Shown here: positions 1,142 through 18,453 of the stretch, in pieces
Position numbering within the stretch: position 1 is the stretch's first letter
Layout of the letters: each line of letters starts with the position of its first letter
Assembly (NCBI GenBank): GCA_034717975.1
Contig: JAYEMF010000106.1
Span: forward strand, 12,966 to 35,807
DNA from: Campylobacterota bacterium
Lineage (GTDB): Bacteria; Campylobacterota; Campylobacteria; Campylobacterales; Sulfurimonadaceae
Reading direction: 5' to 3'
DNA length: 22,842 bases
Position numbers and translations under genes: made by a program
The notes under the pieces: generated by a model
Told to the model about the DNA's origin: nothing
The model's input: the letters and a program-made list of their open reading frames with translations, nothing else
The model's database searches: none

Positions 1142-2160
1142 ATGATAGTCGATGTAATCAAGCATGCCTTGATGATTACCAGTTTTGTGCTGATGATGAT
1201 GCTGTTGATCGAGTATATCAATGTGCAGACTCATGGCCAGTGCAAAACAGCTTGAAAAAGAGCCGCTTCGGCCAGTATGTTCTGGCTGCTTTTTTAGGGG
1301 TGGTGCCCGGTTGCCTCGGTGCGTTCGCGGTCGTTTCGCTCTATTCGCACCGAATGGTCAGTTTCGGTGCACTGGTCGCGGCAATGATGGCGACCAGCGG
1401 TGACGAGGCGTTTGTGATGCTTAGTATGTTTCCCGCAGAGGCACTCTGGCTGAGTGCGATCTTGTTTATCCTGGCCATTGTAGTCGCCTATGGAGCTGAT
1501 CTGCTGTTTAAAGATCAAAACCGTTTTCTGGTCAATGCAAAACATGGTTTTGAACTGCATGAAGAGGAATATTGCCGCTGTTTTTCAGGTAAAGAGATTA
1601 TAGAGCAGTTAAAAAACATCACTTTTCCAAGGGGTTTTCTTATCACACTGTTTGGTGTTTTTCTGGCTGCTGTCATTTTTGGCGGAGTGGGACCGGAAGC
1701 GTGGAACTGGAAGAAGATCACTTTTACCCTGGGTGCAGTGGTGTCGCTTTTTATCATCACCACGGTACCGGATCACTTTCTCGAAGAGCACCTTTATGCC
1801 CATGTGATCAAAAAGCACCTGCTCCGGGTCTTTTTATGGACTTTTGGTGCTCTGCTGGTCGTGCATTACCTGGAAAACCACCTTGATGTTACTGCGTGGC
1901 TGCAGGAAAATGTTTTATCGGTACTGGTGAGTGCGGCAGTGGTCGGGATCATCCCCGAATCGGGACCGCACATGGTCTTTGTGACCATGTATGCCAAAGG
2001 ACTGATCCCTTTTGCCGTTTTGCTGGCGAGTTCGATCTCACAGGATGGGCACGGGACCCTGCCGCTGCTGGCGGTCTCTACGAGGGCCTTTATCTGGCTG
2101 AAGGTGGTCAATATTGTCGTGGCCCTGTTGGTTGGCATGCTGTTTCTAATGTTTATGTAA
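1142..2160 (+). pseudogene. Putative manganese transporter / ArsP_2 (DUF2899-like) membrane protein, frameshifted near 1241
   Basis: GGAGG RBS then ATG at 1142 (MIVDVIKHALMITSFVLMMMLLIEYINVQTHGQ) runs into TGA at 1253-1255. The rest (PGCLGAF, SGDEAF, IPESGPH, QDGHG) is in the -1 frame, 1240..2160. Adding one G (TG->TGG, Trp) fuses the two parts. Could be an assembly error. Confidence 0.7.
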
Positions 2161-2171
2161 GGAGTGAGGCG

Positions 2172-2600
2172 GTGAAAGAAGATACCTTTGTAGAGTCTGT
2201 CATGAAATCTTTTAAAAGTTTTCGAAATATCTTGCCGATGCTGTTGGCCGTCATTTTATCGGTGGGACTGTTCGATGTGGTGGTATCACAGGAGCTGCTT
2301 GCATCGGTCTTTCAGGGCAGTATGTTTTACGATACGCTTATCGGCACACTGGCGGGAGGGGTCTCAGTCGGACAGCCTGTTGCCAGTTATATTATCGGTG
2401 GTGAACTGCTTGAAAGCGGGGTGAGCCTCTATGCCGTTGTCGCGCTGATCGTCTCCTGGGTGACGCTTGGTTTTGTACAGATTCCTCTGGAACAGGCACT
2501 GTTTGGACGCCGTTTTACGGTTCAGAGGAATCTGCTCGGTCTGATCTTTGCCATGCTTGCTACCATTGCCAGTGTTGAGATCATTAAGGGCCTCTCGTGA
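2172..2600 (+). CDS. Permease, DUF318/ArsP_1-like (half-size)
   Basis: GGAG/GAGG RBS then GTG at 2172, in frame with the 1896..2600 ORF; hydrophobic helices; GQPVASY, GVSLYAV, SWVTLG motifs. Confidence 0.75.
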   Translation: MKEDTFVESVMKSFKSFRNILPMLLAVILSVGLFDVVVSQELLASVFQGSMFYDTLIGTLAGGVSVGQPVASYIIGGELLESGVSLYAVVALIVSWVTLGFVQIPLEQALFGRRFTVQRNLLGLIFAMLATIASVEIIKGLS

Positions 2601-3106
2601 AAAAGCAGAAAGAGGCCTCCTCTAAAATCAGCGGCAAGTACTTTCTTCCTATTGTGCTTTTGATCTATCTCCTCTTCTACCTCTCAACACCGGAAGCGGC
2701 TGAAGAGGCATTTCAAAAAAGTATCCATATTCTGTTGAAGCTGCTTCCCATACTTATGGTCGTTATTCTCTTGCTGGGAACCTTTAATTACTTTTTCAGA
2801 CCCAGGGCGATCGCGAAGCATCTGGGTGAGGAGTCGGGAGTGCGGGGCTGGATGATCGCTGTCGTCGGCGGTATATTGAGCCATGGACCCTCCTTTGTCT
2901 GGTATCAGATGCTTTCGGATCTTCGGAGTCATGGGGCGAGGGATGGTCTGATCGTGACATTTATCTATGTAAGGGCCGTTAAACTGCCTTGGATGCCGGT
3001 GATGATCGACTATTTCGGATGGCTGTTTACCATGGTTGTCACACTCGCTCTGATCATAGCCGGTGTTGTGCAGGGGATGATCATGGACAGATTAGAGGTA
3101 CGCTAA
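2597..3106 (+). CDS. Permease, DUF318/ArsP_1-like (half-size, partner of previous gene)
   Basis: GTGA overlap with the previous gene; LGEESG...GILSHGP...WY motif; hydrophobic. Confidence 0.75.
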   Translation: MKKQKEASSKISGKYFLPIVLLIYLLFYLSTPEAAEEAFQKSIHILLKLLPILMVVILLLGTFNYFFRPRAIAKHLGEESGVRGWMIAVVGGILSHGPSFVWYQMLSDLRSHGARDGLIVTFIYVRAVKLPWMPVMIDYFGWLFTMVVTLALIIAGVVQGMIMDRLEVR

Positions 3107-3864
3107 AAATGTCCTTTGGTGTGTGAGAGGTTGGCCAGCAGTAAGAAGATGCCAAGCCCGATGATCAGAGCAGCGGCAAAAAACTCAAGCAGGTAGCCGT
3201 ATTTTCCAAAGGCGTTACCGCCGCGTTTTTGTACGCCTACCGCAAATATACCGGCAAGCGATATGGTCAGTCCCATTCCGATACTCATTACCAGTGCCGT
3301 GGCAATACCGGTGACAATATGCCCTAACGAAATGGCGAAAAGGGTGATGGTCATAACCCCGGGGCAGGGTACAATGCCGGCTGAAAAGGCTACGGCAAGG
3401 TCGCTTTTGTCTGAAACGCTCACCTCTTCATCTCTCTCTTTGCGATGCTTATAGGCTTCATAAACAAGATAGAGCCCGACGAGAATGATCAAAACCGCCG
3501 AGATGATCATGGAGAGATGTGCGATGTTATGGAATGTCTTGGTAAAAAGGGTCTCGATGAGGTAGTAGACAATGAAGGTGAGGAGCAGAGCCGAAGAGGC
3601 ATGGACAAGGGCGATCAGGTAGCCCATTTTGAACGCTTTTTTGAAACTGCCGCCCTGTTTCAGGAAATAGAATCCTACCAGTGCTTTACCGTGACCGGGT
3701 CCGGCGGCATGGATGACGCCGTAGAGGAAGGCAATGCCCAGGATGGTGATGGTTCCCCACAGGGCATCACCCTCAAGTTCTCTCAGGTTGCCGGAAACAA
3801 GGCTGTTTAATTTGTATTGCCATTGGGTAAGCAATCGAATAAAATCACTATAAAATTCACTCAT
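3103..3864 (-). CDS. Nickel/cobalt transporter, NicO/RcnA (ZevB-like) family
   Basis: HAAGPGHGK and GIVPCPG signature motifs, about 6 TM helices, no long His-rich loop. Confidence 0.85.
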   Translation of the reverse strand: MSEFYSDFIRLLTQWQYKLNSLVSGNLRELEGDALWGTITILGIAFLYGVIHAAGPGHGKALVGFYFLKQGGSFKKAFKMGYLIALVHASSALLLTFIVYYLIETLFTKTFHNIAHLSMIISAVLIILVGLYLVYEAYKHRKERDEEVSVSDKSDLAVAFSAGIVPCPGVMTITLFAISLGHIVTGIATALVMSIGMGLTISLAGIFAVGVQKRGGNAFGKYGYLLEFFAAALIIGLGIFLLLANLSHTKGHF

Positions 3865-4367
3865 TGAAGCTCCAGAACATAACCGAAGAAGAAGTCGCCG
3901 TCGAGCTTTTTGAGCCGATACGACTGTGTTGGGTTGGCTTTTTTGACAAACTCATCCTTGAGAACATAGGCGCTAAACATCTCCTCATCGTAAAATTTTA
4001 TGGCCGTTGTCCCTTCAGGCAGTTTCAGGGTAAAGTAGAAATTGACCTTGTTCTCTTCAATAGTCGCCATAAACGAATCGGAAAGCGGTGTCGGAAGCTT
4101 TCTGTTTTTGTTGTAAAAATAGGTGTAATACTCAAACGCTTCAAGGCCGGAGAAGCTCTCTTTATAGACCATCTCGCTCTCTTTTTCATTCAGTTTCCCA
4201 TTGTGGTCACGGTCATAGTCCATGATGAGCATCTGCGAGCTCATCTCGTCAAAGACCCACCTGATCGTGACACGCTCTTTGCCAACAGCCGGATAGACAT
4301 CGACAAAGCAGTGCGGGTGTGCTGAGAGTATGATGGATGATAGGAAAAACAGTATGAAACTACGCAT
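3861..4367 (-). CDS. DUF1007 family periplasmic protein (ZevA-like)
   Basis: Signal peptide then AHPH-x-FVD, W-x-FDEM-x-S and EF-hand-like DRDHNGKLNEKE; ATG at 4367 with AAGG RBS; ATGA overlap with the transporter gene. Confidence 0.85.
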   Translation of the reverse strand: MRSFILFFLSSIILSAHPHCFVDVYPAVGKERVTIRWVFDEMSSQMLIMDYDRDHNGKLNEKESEMVYKESFSGLEAFEYYTYFYNKNRKLPTPLSDSFMATIEENKVNFYFTLKLPEGTTAIKFYDEEMFSAYVLKDEFVKKANPTQSYRLKKLDGDFFFGYVLELQ

Positions 4368-4451
4368 CGAAACCTTATGGATAAACAATCATTTATATAC
4401 AAGCAAATGTCATACCCATATTTTACCATAGAATTAAATTAAACTAATAAT

Positions 4452-5660: not shown

Positions 5661-6896
5661 TCACCCCTTGATGCCATCTGCACGAGGAGTTACTAAAAAC
5701 CCAAAAAACACCTTGATGTACAACATAAAAGGGATCGTCCAGACAATGGATGAGTAGAGGTAGAGTTCTGCCATATAACCTTCGAAAAATGGAATCAGAC
5801 CTCTCATAAGCGTCGCAATTATCATGAGCAGTACCATAAGGTGCGTGTAGATATTTGATGTCAGGTGCCGTCCTGTGTGAATCCAGCCAATGATGATCAT
5901 GATCATCAGATAAGCCAGTCCGAGTCCCCCGCCGGTAATAAAGTGCCTAAAGTGGTTTATTCCGTAAATATCATCATTTAACAGATCCCAGCCCATAAGT
6001 GCATAACCGGCACCCAACATGACAAAAATGGGGGCAAGGTAGAGTATATAGGGCTGATTCCAGATAAACTTCTCTTTCAGATTATAGTCACTTGTAATCG
6101 CTAGGATCGCAGCGCCGCTTGCCAGTCCCAACCAGCCTAAAGCGGAATTGTCAGGATAGAAAAACTCTACGATCGTAAAGGCTATGACACTGAAAACGGC
6201 GAGGTTTGTCAAAGGGGGTCGTGCAATGTAGATATCGTCTATCCCCTTGTCTTCCATCAGTTCATTGACTGCTTCCATATTGACGCGACGCATGGCAAGC
6301 AGGATAAGTACTACGACAGCACCCAGTGCAACTTTGAGGATAGACATGGCATCTGTCTCTGCCAGACCTGCCTGAGAGGCAAAAAACCAGCTTTCAAGTG
6401 CAAATATAGCTACAAGAATATACCCTAAAGAGGCGTGTCTCTGGAGCTTATCGAGCACAATATCTTTGGCAAACCAGATCAGCCAGCCCAGCATGGCAAG
6501 GTTTAAAACAGCGGCCAGATAGACACCCGTGATATCTATAAACCAAAAGCTGACCCGTCCGGCCACCCATAAGATCATGATCTGTTTGAGTCGCTTACCG
6601 ATAAAAGGGACCATACCCGGGAAAAGTTCGGGAAGCCCCGTAGTTAAAAACGCCATGACCCCTGCAGTCAAAATTCCAAAAAGCATCTCATAGACATGCC
6701 AGGTAAGCGTATCGTTCATAAACGGTATGCTTATTACATTGCTCCAGACCAATCCCCAAAGAACCATAGAGATGATCATATAGGGGGCTAGAAGTAAAAA
6801 GACCGGTCTGAACCCGTAAGCCAGGTAGGGCGGTACATCTTTTTCATCGGGGTAGTACAAGTAGTGATTGGTAGCGTGTAGTTTTTGCTCTTCCAT
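5661..6896 (-). CDS. nnrS: NnrS family membrane protein
   Basis: GFRPVFLL, WHVYEMLFG, AFLTTGLPE, HTGR and C-terminal PRADG motifs; about 12 TM helices. Confidence 0.9.
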   Translation of the reverse strand: MEEQKLHATNHYLYYPDEKDVPPYLAYGFRPVFLLLAPYMIISMVLWGLVWSNVISIPFMNDTLTWHVYEMLFGILTAGVMAFLTTGLPELFPGMVPFIGKRLKQIMILWVAGRVSFWFIDITGVYLAAVLNLAMLGWLIWFAKDIVLDKLQRHASLGYILVAIFALESWFFASQAGLAETDAMSILKVALGAVVVLILLAMRRVNMEAVNELMEDKGIDDIYIARPPLTNLAVFSVIAFTIVEFFYPDNSALGWLGLASGAAILAITSDYNLKEKFIWNQPYILYLAPIFVMLGAGYALMGWDLLNDDIYGINHFRHFITGGGLGLAYLMIMIIIGWIHTGRHLTSNIYTHLMVLLMIIATLMRGLIPFFEGYMAELYLYSSIVWTIPFMLYIKVFFGFLVTPRADGIKG

Positions 6897-9507: not shown

Positions 9508-9545
9508 ATTATAGCATTATATTGATATTAATAGTGATTATCATT
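9508..9545 (-). promoter_or_regulatory. Extended -10 promoter (TGcTATAAT) with upstream Fur-type box for the ABC-nnrS unit
   Basis: Minus-strand TGCTATAAT at 9516-9508; TAATAGT-G-ATTATCA at 9529-9543 (13/15 to TGATAAT-N-ATTATCA). Confidence 0.7.
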
Positions 9546-9629: not shown

Positions 9630-11651
9630 TTAAAAACGGTAGGAGAGATCGAGTTTGATGTTGCGGCCGGGCGTCGCATAATCGAGCTCTTGCCAGGCAT
9701 ATGAGAGGTGGTCGTACGTTGTGGCGTCGAAGAGGTTTTCTGCGGCAACAGTAGCGCTGACACCCTGCTCTGTAATAATACCCAGGCGGATATCGGCCGT
9801 GGTATAGCCCGGTGTCTCTTTTTCACCCGTACCTGCTCTCTTTTGCCTGAGCGCACTTACTCCCGAGAGTTCGCTCCAGAACTCCTGGGTAAACAGATAG
9901 CCGGTGTAACGCACACCATAACGGATCTTTATCGGAGGAATCTGTGTCAGCGGCTTGTTATGCGTGATATCGTCGCCTCTGACAACCGAGAGTGATCCGA
10001 ACGTACTTACTTCGTCAGAAATAAAATACTCCCCGTCGGCTTCACCGCCATAAAGGCGTGCATCGGCAATATTTTGATAGAGAAAGCGGTACTCTGTCGG
10101 TGACGCCGCATCAGGATTACTGAGAATTTTTCGGATCATATCATCCACGCGGGTGTAAAAGAGGCTGAGCGATCCGATAAAGTTGCCGTTGCCGTAGCGC
10201 ACGCCTGCATCAAAATTCCAGCTCTTCTCGGGATTGAGGTTTGGGTTTCCGATATCCTGACCCGGACCATCGTGCGGACCGTAAAAGTAGCGCTCTATAA
10301 TGGTCGGTGAGCGAAATGCCCGTCCTACGTTGACAAAGAGAGTAAGGGGTTCGGCAGCTTTGTAGACGAGACCGATGCTCCCACTCAGGGCCGAGTCGCG
10401 ATCGAACTGCGCAGTAGTGATATAGTAGGGCGAGGGTGCCCCGTCAGTTTTTGCTTCAATAGTGTCGTAGCGAAGGCCAGCAGTCAGATTCAGCCGTTCA
10501 GCAGCGGCAAATTCATCTTGCAGATAGAGGCCGTAACCGGTACGCGCAGAGGGGGCCAGCACCGGTACGCCGTCAAAACCCGGTGCGGTCGGCAGATTCT
10601 TGATGGCCCGGCTTGAGTCAAGTGACTCGTTATAGTATTCGGCACCCGTCGTAAGACGGTGTGATTGGACGGGGGTAAGTACAAACTGAGCGCGCAGGGT
10701 ACGGGTGTCTTTGTCTACCTTGATATCAACCAGCCCATCGGGTTTCGGCTCGCGGATGCGGTGGCGGTTGTGTTCCTGCCAACTGGCCAGAAGTTCAAAA
10801 CGTTCCAATATATCGCTGTCGGGTTCATAGGCAATTTTGCCGTTGACCATAGTGTGCGTTTCATCTTTGTAGTAGTCGGATACAAAAGTTCGCGGTGCAG
10901 CGATGCCGATGTCGGCTTTACTCTGCCAGAGGTTGAGTTCCGTCGTCCAGTGATCGGTGAGGTAGTTACCCCCGGTCCAGAGTGTCGAGCCGTCATAATC
11001 GCTGAAGCGGATCTCTTCGTCGGGTGATTCAAGGTTGGAAGATTTTTTGTGGGTCCCCCCGGCATAGAGGTTGATATCGTCCATTCCGGCACTGATATGT
11101 GCTTTTTGCCTGAAGCCGTTGCCGTTGTTCTCAAATTGCAAGCCGACATCGCCTTCGACTCTCGTTTCGTCGCCTCGCTTTTTTGCGGCTTTTTTGGTGA
11201 TAAAGTTGACAACGCCGCCGATAGCGCCCGCACCGTAGAGTACCGAACCAGGTCCGCGTACGATCTCTACGCGTTCAATCTGTGCCGGATCGATAGAGAG
11301 GACATGGTTGCCTCCGGGGCGCTCATCGGAGAGGCGTACGCCATCAACCAGAACAAGTACCTGCTCATGCGAAAGGCCGCGGATGACGGGCATAATGCTT
11401 CCCGGACCGGCGCTGATGGCATCGACGCCCGGCGTATGGCGGAAAATATCGCCGATGGTGGCGACGCTCTTTTCAGCGAGCTCATCCGGGCCGATTACGG
11501 TGACCGGAACGGGCGCCTCTTCGATTTTGAGTGTTGGATTCTGGGTAGGCGTGATGGTTAGCGCTTCCATTGTATGGATCTGCGCGGCAGCAAGCGGTGA
11601 TGATACGGCCAGCGAAACGCCGGCCAGCCATGCCATGGATTTTATCTGCAT
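9630..11651 (-). CDS. TonB-dependent outer membrane receptor (possible metal-ion type)
   Basis: Signal peptide; plug motifs IRGL...VLVLVDG and IERVEIVRGPGSVLYG-x-GAIGGVVN; C-terminal ENLFD...PGRNIKLDLSYRF. Confidence 0.95.
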   Translation of the reverse strand: MQIKSMAWLAGVSLAVSSPLAAAQIHTMEALTITPTQNPTLKIEEAPVPVTVIGPDELAEKSVATIGDIFRHTPGVDAISAGPGSIMPVIRGLSHEQVLVLVDGVRLSDERPGGNHVLSIDPAQIERVEIVRGPGSVLYGAGAIGGVVNFITKKAAKKRGDETRVEGDVGLQFENNGNGFRQKAHISAGMDDINLYAGGTHKKSSNLESPDEEIRFSDYDGSTLWTGGNYLTDHWTTELNLWQSKADIGIAAPRTFVSDYYKDETHTMVNGKIAYEPDSDILERFELLASWQEHNRHRIREPKPDGLVDIKVDKDTRTLRAQFVLTPVQSHRLTTGAEYYNESLDSSRAIKNLPTAPGFDGVPVLAPSARTGYGLYLQDEFAAAERLNLTAGLRYDTIEAKTDGAPSPYYITTAQFDRDSALSGSIGLVYKAAEPLTLFVNVGRAFRSPTIIERYFYGPHDGPGQDIGNPNLNPEKSWNFDAGVRYGNGNFIGSLSLFYTRVDDMIRKILSNPDAASPTEYRFLYQNIADARLYGGEADGEYFISDEVSTFGSLSVVRGDDITHNKPLTQIPPIKIRYGVRYTGYLFTQEFWSELSGVSALRQKRAGTGEKETPGYTTADIRLGIITEQGVSATVAAENLFDATTYDHLSYAWQELDYATPGRNIKLDLSYRF

Positions 11652-11658
11652 AGTGGTT

Positions 11659-11749
11659 TCCTCTATAAGAAATTAGTACCAGGCCACACCTGTTTTGATG
11701 GTGCCTGTGATTTAAAAAATAGTCAATTGTTCTTCTTAGGTATAGAGAA
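11659..11749 (-). promoter_or_regulatory. Predicted SD-sequestering mRNA hairpin of the receptor gene
   Basis: mRNA UUCUCUAUA (11749-11741) is complementary to UAUAGAGGA (11667-11659, containing the SD); inner stem CAGGC/GCCUG at 11707-11680. Confidence 0.6.
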
Positions 11750-12116
11750 GTGTCGGTGGTGCGCGGGGGTTGGTAAAAAAGAGGGGTTTAGGCGAGGGGT
11801 GGTTTTTTCGTAAAGGATGATATCTGTCGCTTACAGTTACTTTTTCAGCACGGAAAATTGTTGGGATCTCAAAAGAGATGCCCTGTGCAAACAGTGTGAC
11901 AACACAGCTTGCTTCCTCTTTGGAGTCAGCGTGCAGAGCCGTTGGTTTGCCTTCTTCAGCGTGGAAGCTTTTGCCATGCAGCATGGCATGCAGATGGGGC
12001 GAGGTTGTCGCGATCTGCAGTACAAAGAGATAGGCTGAAAAGAGAACAATGATAAAGCTGAATGCAGGCGTCTTATGCCTTTTGCCGAAAAATAGCTGGT
12101 TTGTCATTACTGTCAT
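11736..12116 (-). CDS. DUF2946/CruR/CutF-like leader protein with C-terminal RAPP motif
   Basis: N-terminal hydrophobic helix, His cluster (HLHAMLH..H..H), single Cys (SCVVTLFAQG), Pro-rich tail ending PRAPPTLLYT; directly upstream of a TonB-dependent receptor. Confidence 0.75.
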   Translation of the reverse strand: MTVMTNQLFFGKRHKTPAFSFIIVLFSAYLFVLQIATTSPHLHAMLHGKSFHAEEGKPTALHADSKEEASCVVTLFAQGISFEIPTIFRAEKVTVSDRYHPLRKNHPSPKPLFFTNPRAPPTLLYT

Positions 12117-12125
12117 ACTACTGCA

Positions 12126-12539
12126 TTACACAAACATAAACTTTGCCAGCATAACCACCACCATCATCAGTGAAAAAAAGAGATAATGAAAGGTTATTGA
12201 AAACCATTTTACCTCTTTCATGCGCTGCATGATCTGCGGAACGAAATAAAACGTTATCCCCAATACCAGACCGACAGTGATTTTGATATAGAGCAGCATG
12301 TTTGCATCGCCGTGAAGATGCGGCATCAGTATATAGCCGCCGCTGAGCAGTAAGACAGCGACATTGACCATCATGATCTTCCGCGCTCTCATGCCGATGA
12401 GCTTGTCGATCTTCTGATAGGTCGAGGCATCAAAATGTGGAGTGAGCGACGGCACCACGAACGTTCTGAAAAAGACGGTACTGATGAACAGTATTGCAGC
12501 CATAAGATGGATGGTCTTTATCAGTGTATATATTTCCAA
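12126..12539 (-). CDS. Four-TM membrane protein, CopD-like
   Basis: IHLMAAILF in TM1, LLSG, IKI and FHY...MLAKFMF; TTG start with AAGGG RBS. Confidence 0.65.
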   Translation of the reverse strand: MEIYTLIKTIHLMAAILFISTVFFRTFVVPSLTPHFDASTYQKIDKLIGMRARKIMMVNVAVLLLSGGYILMPHLHGDANMLLYIKITVGLVLGITFYFVPQIMQRMKEVKWFSITFHYLFFSLMMVVVMLAKFMFV

Positions 12540-12589: not shown

Positions 12590-12604
12590 TGATATTAATT
12601 ATCA
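12590..12604. promoter_or_regulatory. Fur-type box
   Basis: TGATATT-A-ATTATCA, 14/15 to consensus. Confidence 0.75.
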
Positions 12605-12652: not shown

Positions 12653-12667
12653 TGATAACGATTATCA
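12653..12667. promoter_or_regulatory. Fur-type box
   Basis: TGATAAC-G-ATTATCA, 14/15 to consensus. Confidence 0.78.
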
Positions 12668-12704: not shown

Positions 12705-12719
12705 TGATATCAATTATCA
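12705..12719. promoter_or_regulatory. Fur-type box
   Basis: TGATATC-A-ATTATCA, 13/15 to consensus, between a TACTAT -10-like hexamer and an AAGGA RBS. Confidence 0.7.
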
Positions 12720-14991: not shown

Positions 14992-15006
14992 TGATAATAA
15001 TTATTA
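14992..15006. promoter_or_regulatory. Fur-type box
   Basis: TGATAAT-A-ATTATTA, 14/15 to consensus, just before the AAGGA RBS of the receptor gene. Confidence 0.72.
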
Positions 15007-15021
15007 TTATAAGGAACATAG

Positions 15022-17121
15022 GTGAAGAAAATCATATTAAGCAGCGCGTTAGCGCTTATACTGGCTGGCAGGACCATGGCGGCAGAGGGGATGAAGGCGA
15101 TCGAAGTCGTCAATATCGCGACGAAAACGGAAAAAAGTATTGACGGAGTGGCCGCTACGGTTGATGTCATTACCCAGAAAGATATCGAAAAGATGGGGGC
15201 AGAAAGCCTGAAGGAGATTATCGAAAAGACACCGGGGCTCACGATGCAGTATGGAACGTTCCCAAGCTCATCTTCAAAGAGTAAATCTTCTATTGCTATT
15301 CGTGGTATGGGGGCAAATGGGACGCTGTTTCTACTTGATGGCAGAAGACTCGCGGGAGAAGTAAAAAACCCTTATGACTTAGACCGTATCCCAGCTTCCA
15401 TTATCCAGAGAATCGAAATAGTAAAAGGTCCAATGAGTTCGCTTTACGGTGCTGATGCTGTTGGCGGGGTTATAAACATCATCACGAAAAGACCAGCGGA
15501 TGAGATGAAGATCGATGTAGGTGCCAGATATGGTGCGAATAAGGATGGCGATGCACAAAATGCGAATCTCTCTTTAAGTGTCCAGGGTGAAAACGAAGGG
15601 TTTGGATACAGCGCTTACGCAGGCTTTACAACAACTGACCCATATACACAAAAAGAAGTTGCGGATGTTTATGCAAAAACACCGGGAGGAAATGTAAAAC
15701 CGTCTGCTCATCCAAATCCCGCTATCCAAAACATACAAGACTACTATGATGTAGACACAACATATCGTGAAGACAGCACCATCTATACGTTAGGTACTCG
15801 ACTCTCATATGAGTTTACATCTGATTTAATTGCCGGGATGGATGTGAACTATTTCAAAGAGGAGCGAGACGGTATTTATATAGGGTATATTCACCCAGCT
15901 ACAACCGGGGGTGGACCGGTTCCGATCTATAACAATCCAGTAAACTCGCACGATGAAAATAATCGTCTGGATTTAAGTGCAGACATAGAGTATGTGCCAA
16001 CTGATGACCTGTTGATCAAAGCCCGTATCTACAATAGCAATTATGAAAAACGAAATACAACCACTGCCAGAAATTGGGCCGATATGGGTTATGCCAATGA
16101 AGATGCATCTGCAAATGCCGCTATGAACGCTGATGTCGATATCACAGTTTATGAAGCATCTGCTACATACTTTGCAGTTGAGAGCCATCTCCTTACCGGT
16201 GGGGCTGAGTACCGGGATGAGAGAAGAAAGTCTTCCGTGTTTAACAACAATGTCAGCATTACCGAGAAAAAAGTCGACTATACATCTGTCTACCTTCAAG
16301 ATGAATGGGAAGTAACTGAAACATTCAACACAATTCTTGGTGCGAGGTATGAAGATATCAGCAATGCCGAGGACAAGCCCACATTTCGTGCAGGCGGTAT
16401 CTATGCTTTTGATGAGCTGGCAAAATTGAGAGCAAACTTTGCGCAGGGCTTTCGTACACCGGATATACGAGAGATGTACATAAATATGAATACGCCCAAT
16501 GGCCCTCAACGGGGTGCTGATGTTATGGGGTATGATCTAAAACCGGAATCAACAGATGCCTTTGAAATTGGGCTTGGTGGCCGTAATGCCAAATTCAGCT
16601 ATGACCTTGCAGTTTTTTATAACAAAATTGAAAACAAAATTGAGCAGGTTCAAAATGGCGCCATCACAACATTTGAAAATGTCTCAGATGCAAATACAAA
16701 AGGTATGGAGCTGTCTCTTAACTACCAACTGCTGGATAATTTAGGCAGTACGTTCTTTTGGACTGAGCTAAGAACTGAAAATGAAGAGACTAAAAAAGAT
16801 CTTGAGTTTAACCCGGAGAGAACTTTGATGCTTAGTTTTGATTATCAAGTCACAAAAGCGTTAAATCTCGGAGTAATTGGTAAGTACATTGGTGAGCAGC
16901 GCTATACAGAGGTCATAAACAGAGGTGCTCCAACTCAGAGTGCAGATCCTGATGCTAAAACAGATGCCTTTAGTATTGTCGATCTCACTGCTTCTTATGA
17001 TATCACGGAAGCATTTAACCTTTATGGCGGTATCAATAATATTTTTGATGAAAAAGTCGATGATGTCCTCGGCTCCAATGTCGGGGTTTTCTACTTCGCA
17101 GGGATCAGAGCGAGCTTCTAA
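15022..17121 (+). CDS. TonB-dependent outer membrane receptor (CirA/FepA-like)
   Basis: Signal peptide; IRGMG...TLFLLDGRR, IQRIEIVKGPMSSLYGADAVGGVINIITK, GFRTP, LKPE, NNIFD, terminal Phe. Confidence 0.95.
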   Translation: MKKIILSSALALILAGRTMAAEGMKAIEVVNIATKTEKSIDGVAATVDVITQKDIEKMGAESLKEIIEKTPGLTMQYGTFPSSSSKSKSSIAIRGMGANGTLFLLDGRRLAGEVKNPYDLDRIPASIIQRIEIVKGPMSSLYGADAVGGVINIITKRPADEMKIDVGARYGANKDGDAQNANLSLSVQGENEGFGYSAYAGFTTTDPYTQKEVADVYAKTPGGNVKPSAHPNPAIQNIQDYYDVDTTYREDSTIYTLGTRLSYEFTSDLIAGMDVNYFKEERDGIYIGYIHPATTGGGPVPIYNNPVNSHDENNRLDLSADIEYVPTDDLLIKARIYNSNYEKRNTTTARNWADMGYANEDASANAAMNADVDITVYEASATYFAVESHLLTGGAEYRDERRKSSVFNNNVSITEKKVDYTSVYLQDEWEVTETFNTILGARYEDISNAEDKPTFRAGGIYAFDELAKLRANFAQGFRTPDIREMYINMNTPNGPQRGADVMGYDLKPESTDAFEIGLGGRNAKFSYDLAVFYNKIENKIEQVQNGAITTFENVSDANTKGMELSLNYQLLDNLGSTFFWTELRTENEETKKDLEFNPERTLMLSFDYQVTKALNLGVIGKYIGEQRYTEVINRGAPTQSADPDAKTDAFSIVDLTASYDITEAFNLYGGINNIFDEKVDDVLGSNVGVFYFAGIRASF

Positions 17122-17133
17122 GATATAAGGCGT

Positions 17134-18441
17134 TTAGTTGCCGGTTTTCATATTCCGGGCTAGCGCCGTTTTATGTTCCTGAAGGTTTTGTATCACTAAA
17201 TTCATATGCAGTTGCAGATCATAATACTCATTCATATACGAAAGCGGTACGTCGGTGTTTTGTTTTATGCCTTCTAGTATCTCTTTTAGATCGATGATCT
17301 CTTTTTCCGTCTCATCCATGTTCATAGTGCTTAGGCGTTTATTGATATCATGCAGCTTTTCGTAACGGCCATAGATCTTGTGACGGATCTGCCAGCGATA
17401 CAGCGGCATGGCCCCTTTGATAAGGGGGATAAATAAGATGAGAAGCGGTATGACCAGGATCATCAGACGCTTGATCTGTGATGCGATCCAAAAAGGGAAG
17501 ATCCGATCAAGCCAGCCATCGCCTTCTTTCAGATAGATATCGGCTTCCGGACTCATCTCTATGTCTGTGTATCTACTGCTTGGAAATGCTCCTTCATCTT
17601 CAAAAACACCGCCTTTGCTGTGTACTTTCTTGGCTGCTTGCAAGATGAGTCGTACAATATCGGGATGCAGGTCCTCTTTGGCCAGCAAAGTCGCAACGGT
17701 AGCGATCATGCTGATCTCTTCGCTTGGGATATTGTCGCGTACATTTACCATCCCTTCGGCAATGTCCACTTTTGAGATGTAAGGGAAGCGTTTATCGTAA
17801 GCGTGAGCACGTTTAAAACTCATCAAGTGGACATTACTATCGTAAAAGAGCTCTTTTATCAAAGAGGTATAGGCACCGGAAACATTGAAAACAGCATCTA
17901 TCTCCCCTGCTAATATGGCATTTTTTGCCTCTTCGTTCGAGAGGTGCAAAAAAGTCGTATTGTCTGCTGTGACACCGTTCATATTTAAGATCTCGATGGA
18001 AAGCCTGTAGGTACCGCTCTCTTCTTTGCCGATAGCCAGACGTTTACCGACAAGCTGAGAAATGTACATGACATTACCCAGCTCGGTCCGATAGAAGATC
18101 CAGAGCGGCTCAAAGTAGAGGCTGGCCAGTGAATAGAGACTCAGATGCTGATAATCCGAAGTGGTCCCGCCCTGAATGAAGGCCATGTCGGCTTTGTTTT
18201 TCTCCAGCATCTTCAATGCGGCAATGGAGCCATCGGAGGGAATGATATTTAGGGTAACCCCTTCATCTTTCAGAAGTTCTTGATACTTCAAGGCTGTTTT
18301 ATAATAGACACCATCTTTTTCGCCGGTGATGATAGAAACACTTTTAGGGGCAATAGGATCAAGATATTGGTAGCCAATGCCAAAAAGTATGGCAATAAAA
18401 ATGAGGATCAATATACCCTCTTTGCATAAAGCGCAGCGCAT
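17134..18441 (-). CDS. TAXI family TRAP solute-binding protein with C-terminal membrane helix
   Basis: TG-x-x-DGVY, S-x-GS, DMAFIQGG, EPLWIFYR, IG-x-x-x-SGT; extra TM (PFWIA...IPLLILFIPL) and helical tail. Start uncertain (18441 or 18447). Confidence 0.8.
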   Translation of the reverse strand: MRCALCKEGILILIFIAILFGIGYQYLDPIAPKSVSIITGEKDGVYYKTALKYQELLKDEGVTLNIIPSDGSIAALKMLEKNKADMAFIQGGTTSDYQHLSLYSLASLYFEPLWIFYRTELGNVMYISQLVGKRLAIGKEESGTYRLSIEILNMNGVTADNTTFLHLSNEEAKNAILAGEIDAVFNVSGAYTSLIKELFYDSNVHLMSFKRAHAYDKRFPYISKVDIAEGMVNVRDNIPSEEISMIATVATLLAKEDLHPDIVRLILQAAKKVHSKGGVFEDEGAFPSSRYTDIEMSPEADIYLKEGDGWLDRIFPFWIASQIKRLMILVIPLLILFIPLIKGAMPLYRWQIRHKIYGRYEKLHDINKRLSTMNMDETEKEIIDLKEILEGIKQNTDVPLSYMNEYYDLQLHMNLVIQNLQEHKTALARNMKTGN

Positions 18442-18453
18442 GATCACGATCCT

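Follow-up and report, generated by a model that had tools for sequence, protein, structure and literature searches.

A candidate CruR-like arrest leader upstream of a TonB-dependent receptor gene in a Campylobacterota genome

The closest described systems to the locus considered here are those of CruR (Bp2923) of Bordetella pertussis, a DUF2946 (PF11162) protein which is the leader of cruR-crtA(bfrG)-crpH (PMC9426467; PMC12992588; PMC12914433), and of CutF of Rhodobacter capsulatus together with the CutF-like clusters (PMC9973294; 2025 preprint 10.1101/2025.02.05.636593). A comparable arrangement was found in a 22,842-nucleotide stretch of a Campylobacterota bacterium (GenBank assembly GCA_034717975.1, contig JAYEMF010000106.1, positions 12,966 to 35,807), the whole of which is referred to as the window. 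Here, an open reading frame (ORF) at 11736-12116 on the minus strand, hereafter the leader, lies ahead of a gene for a TonB-dependent receptor. From its sequence and by analogy, the leader is proposed, with a probability of roughly 0.7, to be translated as a regulatory arrest peptide of the CruR/CutF class which controls the receptor gene. The best reading is that it would respond to a metal.

CruR carries C90xxC93, then 45 residues and R139APP142, and precedes a TonB-dependent transporter. It controls bfrG via Rho termination, with a bubble of C over G at the 3' end of the ORF (PMC9426467). Its arrest has been shown in vitro with a toeprint at two proline codons (PMC12992588). Members of DUF2946 have a conserved CXXC, from which the distance to RAPP varies by no more than 1-2 residues, and >95% of them have an export signal; the usual position of their genes is at the head of operons that also contain TonB-dependent transporter and/or PepSY_TM genes (PMC9426467).

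CutF-like proteins (2,540 in 29 clusters) have Cys, His or mixed motifs and TonB-like neighbours, and some have been proposed to sense metals other than copper. It has been suggested that the 45-residue spacing in CutF would put its sensor at the periplasmic vestibule of SecY (PMC9973294). Both CruR and CutF are undetectable in cells, and their output mechanisms differ, with CruR acting by Rho and CutF by a stem-loop (PMC9426467; PMC9973294). As regards the arrest core itself, bacterial proteomes avoid few tetrapeptides as strongly as RAPP, RGPP and RDPP, except at the ends of small exported leaders, and upstream ORFs (uORFs) with RAPP or RGPP occur ahead of TonB-dependent receptors throughout Gram-negative bacteria (PMC12992588). 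QAPP is also a natural arrest motif, the Q86A substitution weakening arrest in a uORF of Myxococcales (PMC10987492).

The leader, its family and its gene order

The leader ORF was identified from an ORF listing and a script check and encodes 126 amino acids from an ATG start. A further in-frame ATG at codon 4 is the start in the public gene call and gives 123 amino acids; either may be the true start (numbering here follows the longer form). A hydrophobic segment at residues 18-36 (12009-12065, minus strand; Kyte-Doolittle 19-residue mean 2.29), preceded by K12, R13 and K15 and helical in the AlphaFold2 model, is predicted to be the export signal expected of CruR-type leaders (a signal peptide or an N-in/C-out anchor). 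Histidines occur at positions 14, 41, 43, 47, 52, 62, 100 and 106, and the only cysteine is Cys71, within C-V-V-T. RAPP forms residues 118-121, five residues ahead of the stop, and its codons CGC GCA CCA CCG (11754-11765, minus strand) are the proposed site of ribosome arrest. The stop codon is at 11738-11736 and the receptor ATG at 11651, which leaves a gap of 84 nt. The AlphaFold2 model has helices at 17-38, 40-48 and 72-77 with a mean predicted local distance difference test (pLDDT) score of 65.5, and the protein is predicted to be largely unstructured. A preliminary description of the locus had listed the ORF, its hydrophobic helix, five of these histidines, Cys71, RAPP and the 84-nt gap, all of which are present in the sequence.

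A word-indexed single-sequence search of a set of 5.8 billion proteins returned only the leader's own protein. An exhaustive phmmer search of 1.8 billion representatives returned five homologues of 101-127 amino acids (E 5e-5 to 7e-4), aligning up to RAPP. A sixth match was rejected as an unrelated repeat protein, and a single-protein search of 60 relatives gave chance-level matches only (E 0.007-0.04), in unrelated contexts. A profile of the leader and its five homologues found 239 proteins at E<=0.01. The best 120 of these 239 matches were aligned and provide all family residue counts reported here; none of the 120 has a precomputed Pfam domain. The leader belongs to a real and conserved family of approximately 120-amino acid proteins, with at least 239 members, which is without a name in current domain libraries.

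The family signature consists of a hydrophobic helix, S-P-[ED]-L-H-x-x-L-H, a variable acidic loop, C-[VA]-V-T-L-F-A-Q-G, approximately 40 residues, [RQ]-[AGD]-P-P and a short tail. Five positions are invariant in all 120 sequences (P40, C71, V73, G79, and P120), and S39, L42, H43, L46, H47, T74, L75, F76, A77, and P121 are kept in at least 90%. The first motif, SPHLHAMLH in the leader (codons 39-47; 11976-12002, minus strand), coincides with the modelled helix at 40-48, and its counts are S39 119, P40 120, L42 116, H43 119, L46 108, and H47 118 of 120. For the second motif, C-V-V-T-L-F-A-Q-G (codons 71-79; 11880-11906, minus strand), they are C71 120, V73 120, T74 117, L75 119, and G79 120. 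The HxHxxxH cluster of the preliminary description stands as to H43 and H47 and falls as to the remainder: position 41 is His in the leader and E or D in 112/120 relatives, and H52 and H62, inside a loop of variable length, are neither invariant nor kept in 90%, so that the motif is better given as L-H-x-x-L-H. An acidic run precedes Cys71 (D or E at position 68 in 112/120 and at 69 in 91/120), and a single Cys is found in 71/120 members. On the basis of this alignment, His43, His47, and Cys71 form a candidate set of metal ligands, with Thr74 and the acidic run before the Cys.

At the C-terminus, [RQ][AGD]PP is found in 119/120 members, and the conservation on which the preliminary description had staked its proposal is in this respect borne out. 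The types are QAPP (83), RAPP (18), QGPP (10), and RDPP (7), the exceptions being one QAPP with a longer tail and one QAPL, and the motif ends 1-8 residues from the stop in 118/120. The number of residues between the invariant Cys and the R or Q of the motif is 48 in 95/120, 46 in 24/120 and 47 in one; it is 46 in the leader, where the spacing from C71 to R118 had previously been given as 47. The distance from His47 to the Cys ranges from 20 to 33 across the family. Spacing is thus fixed only between the Cys and the C-terminal motif, as a ribosome-tunnel mechanism predicts. The first hydrophobic segment (H1) has a Kyte-Doolittle mean of at least 1.6 in 118/120. In most relatives a second one (H2) starts at the Cys, with a mean of at least 1.6 in 99/120 and a median of 2.33.

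In a subgroup ending in RAPP, one record of which is labelled Opitutales, the loop that joins the His motif to the invariant Cys contains an additional C-x-G-H-C-H. In the alignment this subgroup comprises P0005, P0008, P0010, P0013, P0014, P0016-P0018, P0021, and P0027, with P0029 having F for the first His. At the one locus of this subgroup that was examined (L025) a ZnuD-like receptor gene is next, and sensor subtypes may track receptor type.

Gene order was examined by scanning one genome per species with the family pattern C[VA]VTLFA[QLG]G, which identified 19 loci, all in Opitutaceae or other Verrucomicrobiota, groups toward which the pattern itself is biased. The next gene on the same strand encodes a TonB-dependent receptor in 18 of the 19 and a PEP-CTERM protein in the remaining one (L041). 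Twelve of these 18 receptors were recognized by the Pfam barrel domain and six by NCBIfam, five of them being nearest to ZnuD (323-347 bits against a cut-off of 950) and one siderophore-like. A metagenome scan, for which the nine-member clade nearest to the leader was the query, added five loci, with a TonB-dependent receptor next in four. Genome and metagenome loci together give 22/24, in agreement with the synteny claimed in the preliminary description. The G+C content of related loci ranges from 0.31 to 0.60, most Opitutaceae loci being outside that range measurement.

At one of the metagenome loci (L045) the leader is 36% identical to that of the window and has an NPRAPP tail, and the first 259 residues of its receptor are 59% identical to the window receptor. 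No match to the family profile was found in 400 further genomes sampled from 64 genera of the window's phylum or in 2 genomes of the same genus, and the window receptor had none at E<=1e-30 in 40 relatives. Because the L045 pair is similar and neither protein was matched in these relatives, leader and receptor look like a patchily distributed two-gene cassette. Beyond the receptor, the Opitutaceae loci contain convergent genes (Fic/HTH, EamA, PPK2 or FtsY-like), with no co-oriented gene and no clue to a metal. Among loci L026-L040, many of the Opitutaceae ones have a convergent Fic/DOC gene beyond the leader-receptor pair, in several cases with HTH_3, and the two are likely a toxin-antitoxin-like pair.

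Comparison with CruR, CutF and other arrest peptides

The PF11162 model did not match the leader at E up to 10, nor any protein of its own genome at E<=1. Among the family members, 66/120 are matched, all below threshold (best E 1.8e-4), and two leader loci scored 15.5 and 19.2 bits against the curated cut-off of 23.7, covering model positions 3-117 or 20-117 of 117. Language-model neighbours of the leader include clusters named DUF2946, with a score of 0.96. Because the PF11162 scores are below threshold and the leader itself is without a match, it was not filed as a member of DUF2946, and the model search by which the preliminary description had meant to confirm that kinship was in this sense negative. 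The family is treated, on sequence grounds, as a diverged sister family which would work like DUF2946 (CruR/CutF).

In its architecture the leader resembles CruR, as had been stated beforehand: both are small, poorly structured exported proteins with a Cys-centred motif at a set distance from a C-terminal RAPP near the stop, and in both a long gap separates the ORF from a downstream gene for a TonB-dependent transporter (cruR, 162 nt; the window, 84 nt). A stretch of C over G at the 3' end of the ORF is also common to both. The distance from the first Cys to the Arg is 48 residues in CruR (C90 to R139), equal to the commonest spacing in the leader family and two more than in most of its other members. 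As the distances match and Thr74 falls at the position of the second Cys of CruR, the C-V-V-T of the leader would stand where CXXC stands, which supports the replacement proposed in the preliminary description; this placement comes from spacing numbers and not from a residue-level alignment.

The differences from CruR are also considerable. The leader family has a single Cys with Thr at +3 and no CXXC, has QAPP more commonly than RAPP, falls below the curated PF11162 threshold, and in most relatives has a second hydrophobic segment. No PepSY_TM gene was seen to follow, and the leader of the window is probably the second gene of its operon. The family is found in Verrucomicrobiota and Campylobacterota, whereas CruR is found in Proteobacteria. 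Its SPxLHxxLH motif is not mentioned for CruR in the available portion of PMC9426467.

The resemblance to CutF lies in the concept of an exported nascent sensor with approximately 45 residues between sensor and Pro motif. Stalling on CutF opens a structure masking the next ribosome binding site (RBS), to which a predicted pairing in the window between an anti-Shine-Dalgarno (anti-SD) and a Shine-Dalgarno (SD) sequence may correspond. In contrast to the leader, CutF has CxxxC and an EF-P-dependent PPP and controls a multicopper oxidase, and its stall is induced by copper, where the opposite sign would be expected for the leader of an importer gene. The RAPP-like ('RQH') peptides ApdA, ApdP, SecM and their relatives (Sakiyama 2021; PMC10987492; PMC10951233) resemble the leader in having an R/Q-A/G-P-P core close to the stop together with a localisation signal at the N-terminus. 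They act as sensors of translocation, however, and their ORFs precede secA, secDF or yidC, whereas the genes of the leader family precede TonB-dependent receptors and encode conserved residues of the metal-ligand type.

In the literature on DUF2946, RAPP/QAPP arrest peptides and CruR, no description of a family with SPxLHxxLH...CxVTLFAxG was found. The statement in the preliminary description that no case had been characterised in this lineage agrees with the literature seen, but the principle is already published, as His/Cys sensor variants (PMC9973294) and as RAPP uORFs before TonB receptors (PMC12992588). New in the leader family are the putative His2-Cys sensor, the mostly QAPP core, the second hydrophobic segment and the phyla.

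Proposed mechanism and alternative explanations

Two RNA features were predicted over the proposed stall site and the gap. A C minus G scan identified a 78-nt C-rich, G-poor stretch at 11823-11746 on the minus strand (C 0.44, G 0.06), which covers the Pro-rich tail, ends at the stall site and has the top value of approximately 1750 windows on the strand. Similar to the Rho loading site of cruR, it is a candidate for the same role, and a rho gene was detected in the genome (673 bits). In the minimum free energy (MFE) fold, UUCUCUAUA (11741-11749, minus strand; leader codons 123-126) pairs as a predicted anti-SD arm with UAUAGAGGA (11659-11667, minus strand) in the SD region of the receptor. This 9-bp duplex has an energy of -10.8 kcal/mol, which is reached by 0.95% of first-arm shuffles.

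In the proposed mechanism the ribosome would stall with Pro120 in the P site and Pro121 in the A site, as for CruR and other RAPP/QAPP peptides. Approximately 30-35 residues would then be in the tunnel and residues up to approximately 86-90 outside the ribosome. At this point Cys71 and the hydrophobic stretch after it would only just have reached the translocon, close to H43 and H47, which lie where the first helix ends on the outer side. The same geometry has been proposed for the 45-residue spacing of CutF. Binding of metal by His43, His47, and Cys71 would change the folding of the nascent chain or its partitioning into the membrane, and through the resulting pulling force the duration of the stall. 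A stalled ribosome would cover the C-rich stretch, blocking Rho, and, with Pro120 in the P site, would cover most of the anti-SD arm, so that the receptor RBS would be freed and the receptor made. Upon release of the stall, translation would terminate, the RBS would be masked again and/or Rho would end transcription, and the receptor would be off. It follows from the logic of an importer and the analogy with CruR that metal sufficiency most likely releases the stall.

A more specific form of this scheme combines two proposals, that the leader is a transmembrane force sensor gated by a metal other than copper at a His2-Cys site, and that QAPP is the natural arrest core in Verrucomicrobiota. Taken jointly they are tentative, and we would sooner doubt the combination than rely on it. 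The His2-Cys site would form between the outer end of the signal anchor and the start of H2 as the ribosome reaches the [RQ]APP codons, and periplasmic metal would decide the insertion of the hairpin and the freeing of the stalled chain. The metal could be zinc, going by the ZnuD-like receptors (5/19 loci), or iron or haem, going by the Fur-type boxes and the haem-receptor-like barrel described below.

A number of observations weigh against the leader being an arrest peptide of the CruR/CutF class. Pfam and NCBIfam scans gave no match for its ORF, CXXC is absent from it, and the residue at +3 after the Cys is Thr in all but three of the aligned relatives. It is preceded in its operon by a 137-amino acid gene ending 9 nt upstream. 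Its H2 is weak (Kyte-Doolittle mean 1.39 against the family median of 2.33), and its AlphaFold2 model is of low confidence (pLDDT 65.5) with no metal-site geometry visible. Retention of the C-terminal motif was counted on the best 120 of 239 matches to a profile which itself included the motif, giving a slight bias toward matches that keep it; this bias is small because four residues add little to scores of 67-154 bits. At the RNA level, Pro codons account for part of the C over G enrichment, and its maximum is in the top 2% of the own locus at just 9/24 related loci. The fold of the whole region is unremarkable (z = -0.19), 6% of native 24-nt windows on the strand pair as well as UUCUCUAUA:UAUAGAGGA, and the pairing is absent from the 4 closest loci examined (L045-L048). 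Being absent there and common among native windows, it is a hint specific to the window and not a family feature.

Among these four loci, the leader-receptor gap is 202 nt in L046 and 51 nt in L045. In L046 the segment that begins at the arrest codons and runs a little beyond the receptor start (3816-4020) has a strongly structured predicted fold (-51.6 kcal/mol), in contrast to the gap of L045. Close relatives may have different output mechanisms.

It was also considered that the leader is a stable small membrane protein that crosses the membrane once or twice and has a His2-Cys metal site facing the periplasm, acting as a metal acceptor, a chaperone or an inner-membrane partner of the receptor, with [RQ]xPP as a binding or sorting motif. 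The two hydrophobic segments of most members, the conserved residues at the ends of these segments and the conserved leader-receptor order would all suit such a protein. It is nevertheless rather unlikely, as the fixed distance of 46-48 residues from Cys to motif fits a tunnel ruler, whereas a folded protein would offer no evident reason for it, the leader is predicted to be largely unstructured, CruR and CutF are undetectable in cells, and RAPP, RGPP and RDPP are avoided in proteomes other than at the ends of small exported leaders (PMC12992588). The same tail would also be compatible with an arrest peptide that monitors export or insertion capacity, as SecM, MifM and ApdP do, tying receptor synthesis to Sec/YidC, with a structural role for His and Cys. 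An export signal and a RAPP-like tail define monitoring substrates (PMC10987492; PMC12992588), and a hydrophobic segment would end approximately 30 residues before the stall site, where a force sensor is expected. Such a role is improbable given that a Sec or YidC gene is downstream in 0/24 loci, against a TonB-dependent receptor in 22/24, that the near-invariant His, His and Cys are classical metal ligands with an acidic loop before the Cys, and that the relatives CruR and CutF respond to copper.

Finally, the ORF might not be translated at all, the region acting as RNA alone for instance as a 5' leader that contains a Rho site or as an element resembling a riboswitch. The strong C over G stretch would be in keeping with this, and no obvious SD sequence was seen before either leader ATG. 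However, the conservation is at the protein level, across very different G+C contents, with invariant residues and an open frame of constant length. RNA alone is on this account no explanation, and we regard it as scarcely credible.

Neighbouring genes, the metal and significance

The receptor encoded at 9630-11651 on the minus strand has 673 amino acids and matches the Pfam Plug (1.4e-27) and barrel (5.6e-53) domains. Its best NCBIfam model is TonB-hemin (haem/haemoglobin) at 301 bits against a cut-off of 317; the copper and ZnuD models scored 137 and 124 bits, respectively. Relatives in the PDB include the haem receptors ShuA and PhuR (plug region) and the copper porin OprC over the full length (87 bits). 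Unlike the transporter that follows CruR, it is not of the CrtA type: the structure 9rvq, which from its title we take to be CrtA, was matched only in the plug region (E 2.7e-11). Downstream of the receptor are genes for an NMT1/SsuA-type binding protein, an ABC permease and ATPase, and NnrS.

Upstream of the leader, a polytopic membrane protein of 137 amino acids is encoded at 12126-12539 on the minus strand (weak DUF2269 match, E 0.0027; UPF0093/HemJ-like, E 0.1). Its gene ends 9 nt before the leader ATG and is probably co-transcribed with the leader. The idea that this protein travels with the leader was rejected, homologues being found in 14/60 relatives with no adjoining leader-like ORF or receptor among the matches listed; a 141-amino acid ORF in L046 is not a homologue.

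The divergent genes encode DUF2325, TonB, ExbB, ExbD and a second TonB-dependent receptor. The gene for the latter (15022-17121, plus strand) follows TonB-ExbB-ExbD and has a Fur-like box immediately ahead of it; the approximately 120 nt that precede it are too few for a leader ORF, and a convergent NMT1_3 binding protein gene follows (17134-18447). Elsewhere in the window, an ArsP_2-like permease ORF (1240-2160, plus strand) overlaps a family-less ORF of 234 amino acids (1896-2600) and is followed by an ArsP_1-like ORF (2597-3106), and these may represent a split or frameshifted heavy-metal permease. A DUF1007 and NicO-like pair (3103-4388, minus strand) adjoins them.

Fur-box-like palindromes were sought with an assumed 7-1-7 consensus, TGATAATnATTATCA, allowing <=2 mismatches; the window has 8, where 0.13 would be expected. 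The divergent promoter region ahead of the operon contains three of them (12590-12604, 12653-12667, and 12705-12719), another lies before the binding-protein gene (9529-9543) and two, which overlap, before the second receptor (14992-15009). The remaining two overlap at 5891-5908, inside the NnrS gene. Their distribution suggests a Fur-family regulon of the iron type over the whole locus, and, given this enrichment, the operon is probably iron-regulated at transcription. The leader would then probably be a second, post-transcriptional check on top of Fur-type transcriptional repression.

The cues to the metal conflict, as the ZnuD-like receptors of relatives point to zinc and the known homologues to copper. 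Sensing of Ni, Co or Zn, which had been put forward in the preliminary description, found no direct support.

The core of the preliminary description, which places a RAPP-type arrest leader similar to CruR ahead of a TonB-dependent receptor gene, is right in kind and partly supported. If it is true, control of the next gene by a nascent exported peptide which reads a metal and stalls would extend to Verrucomicrobiota and Campylobacterota, with a sensor chemistry (His-His-Cys in place of a Cys pair) that would be new and with an arrest core that is mostly QAPP. Surveys with the Pfam model (PMC9426467) would miss the leader family and those based on RAPP/RGPP (PMC12992588) its QAPP majority, and the number of receptors under such control is for this reason probably underestimated. 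The strict ruler of 46-48 residues together with the second hydrophobic segment would make the family a good test case for how a ligand outside the ribosome releases or prolongs a stall, and hundreds of 'hypothetical proteins' encoded before TonB receptors could gain names.

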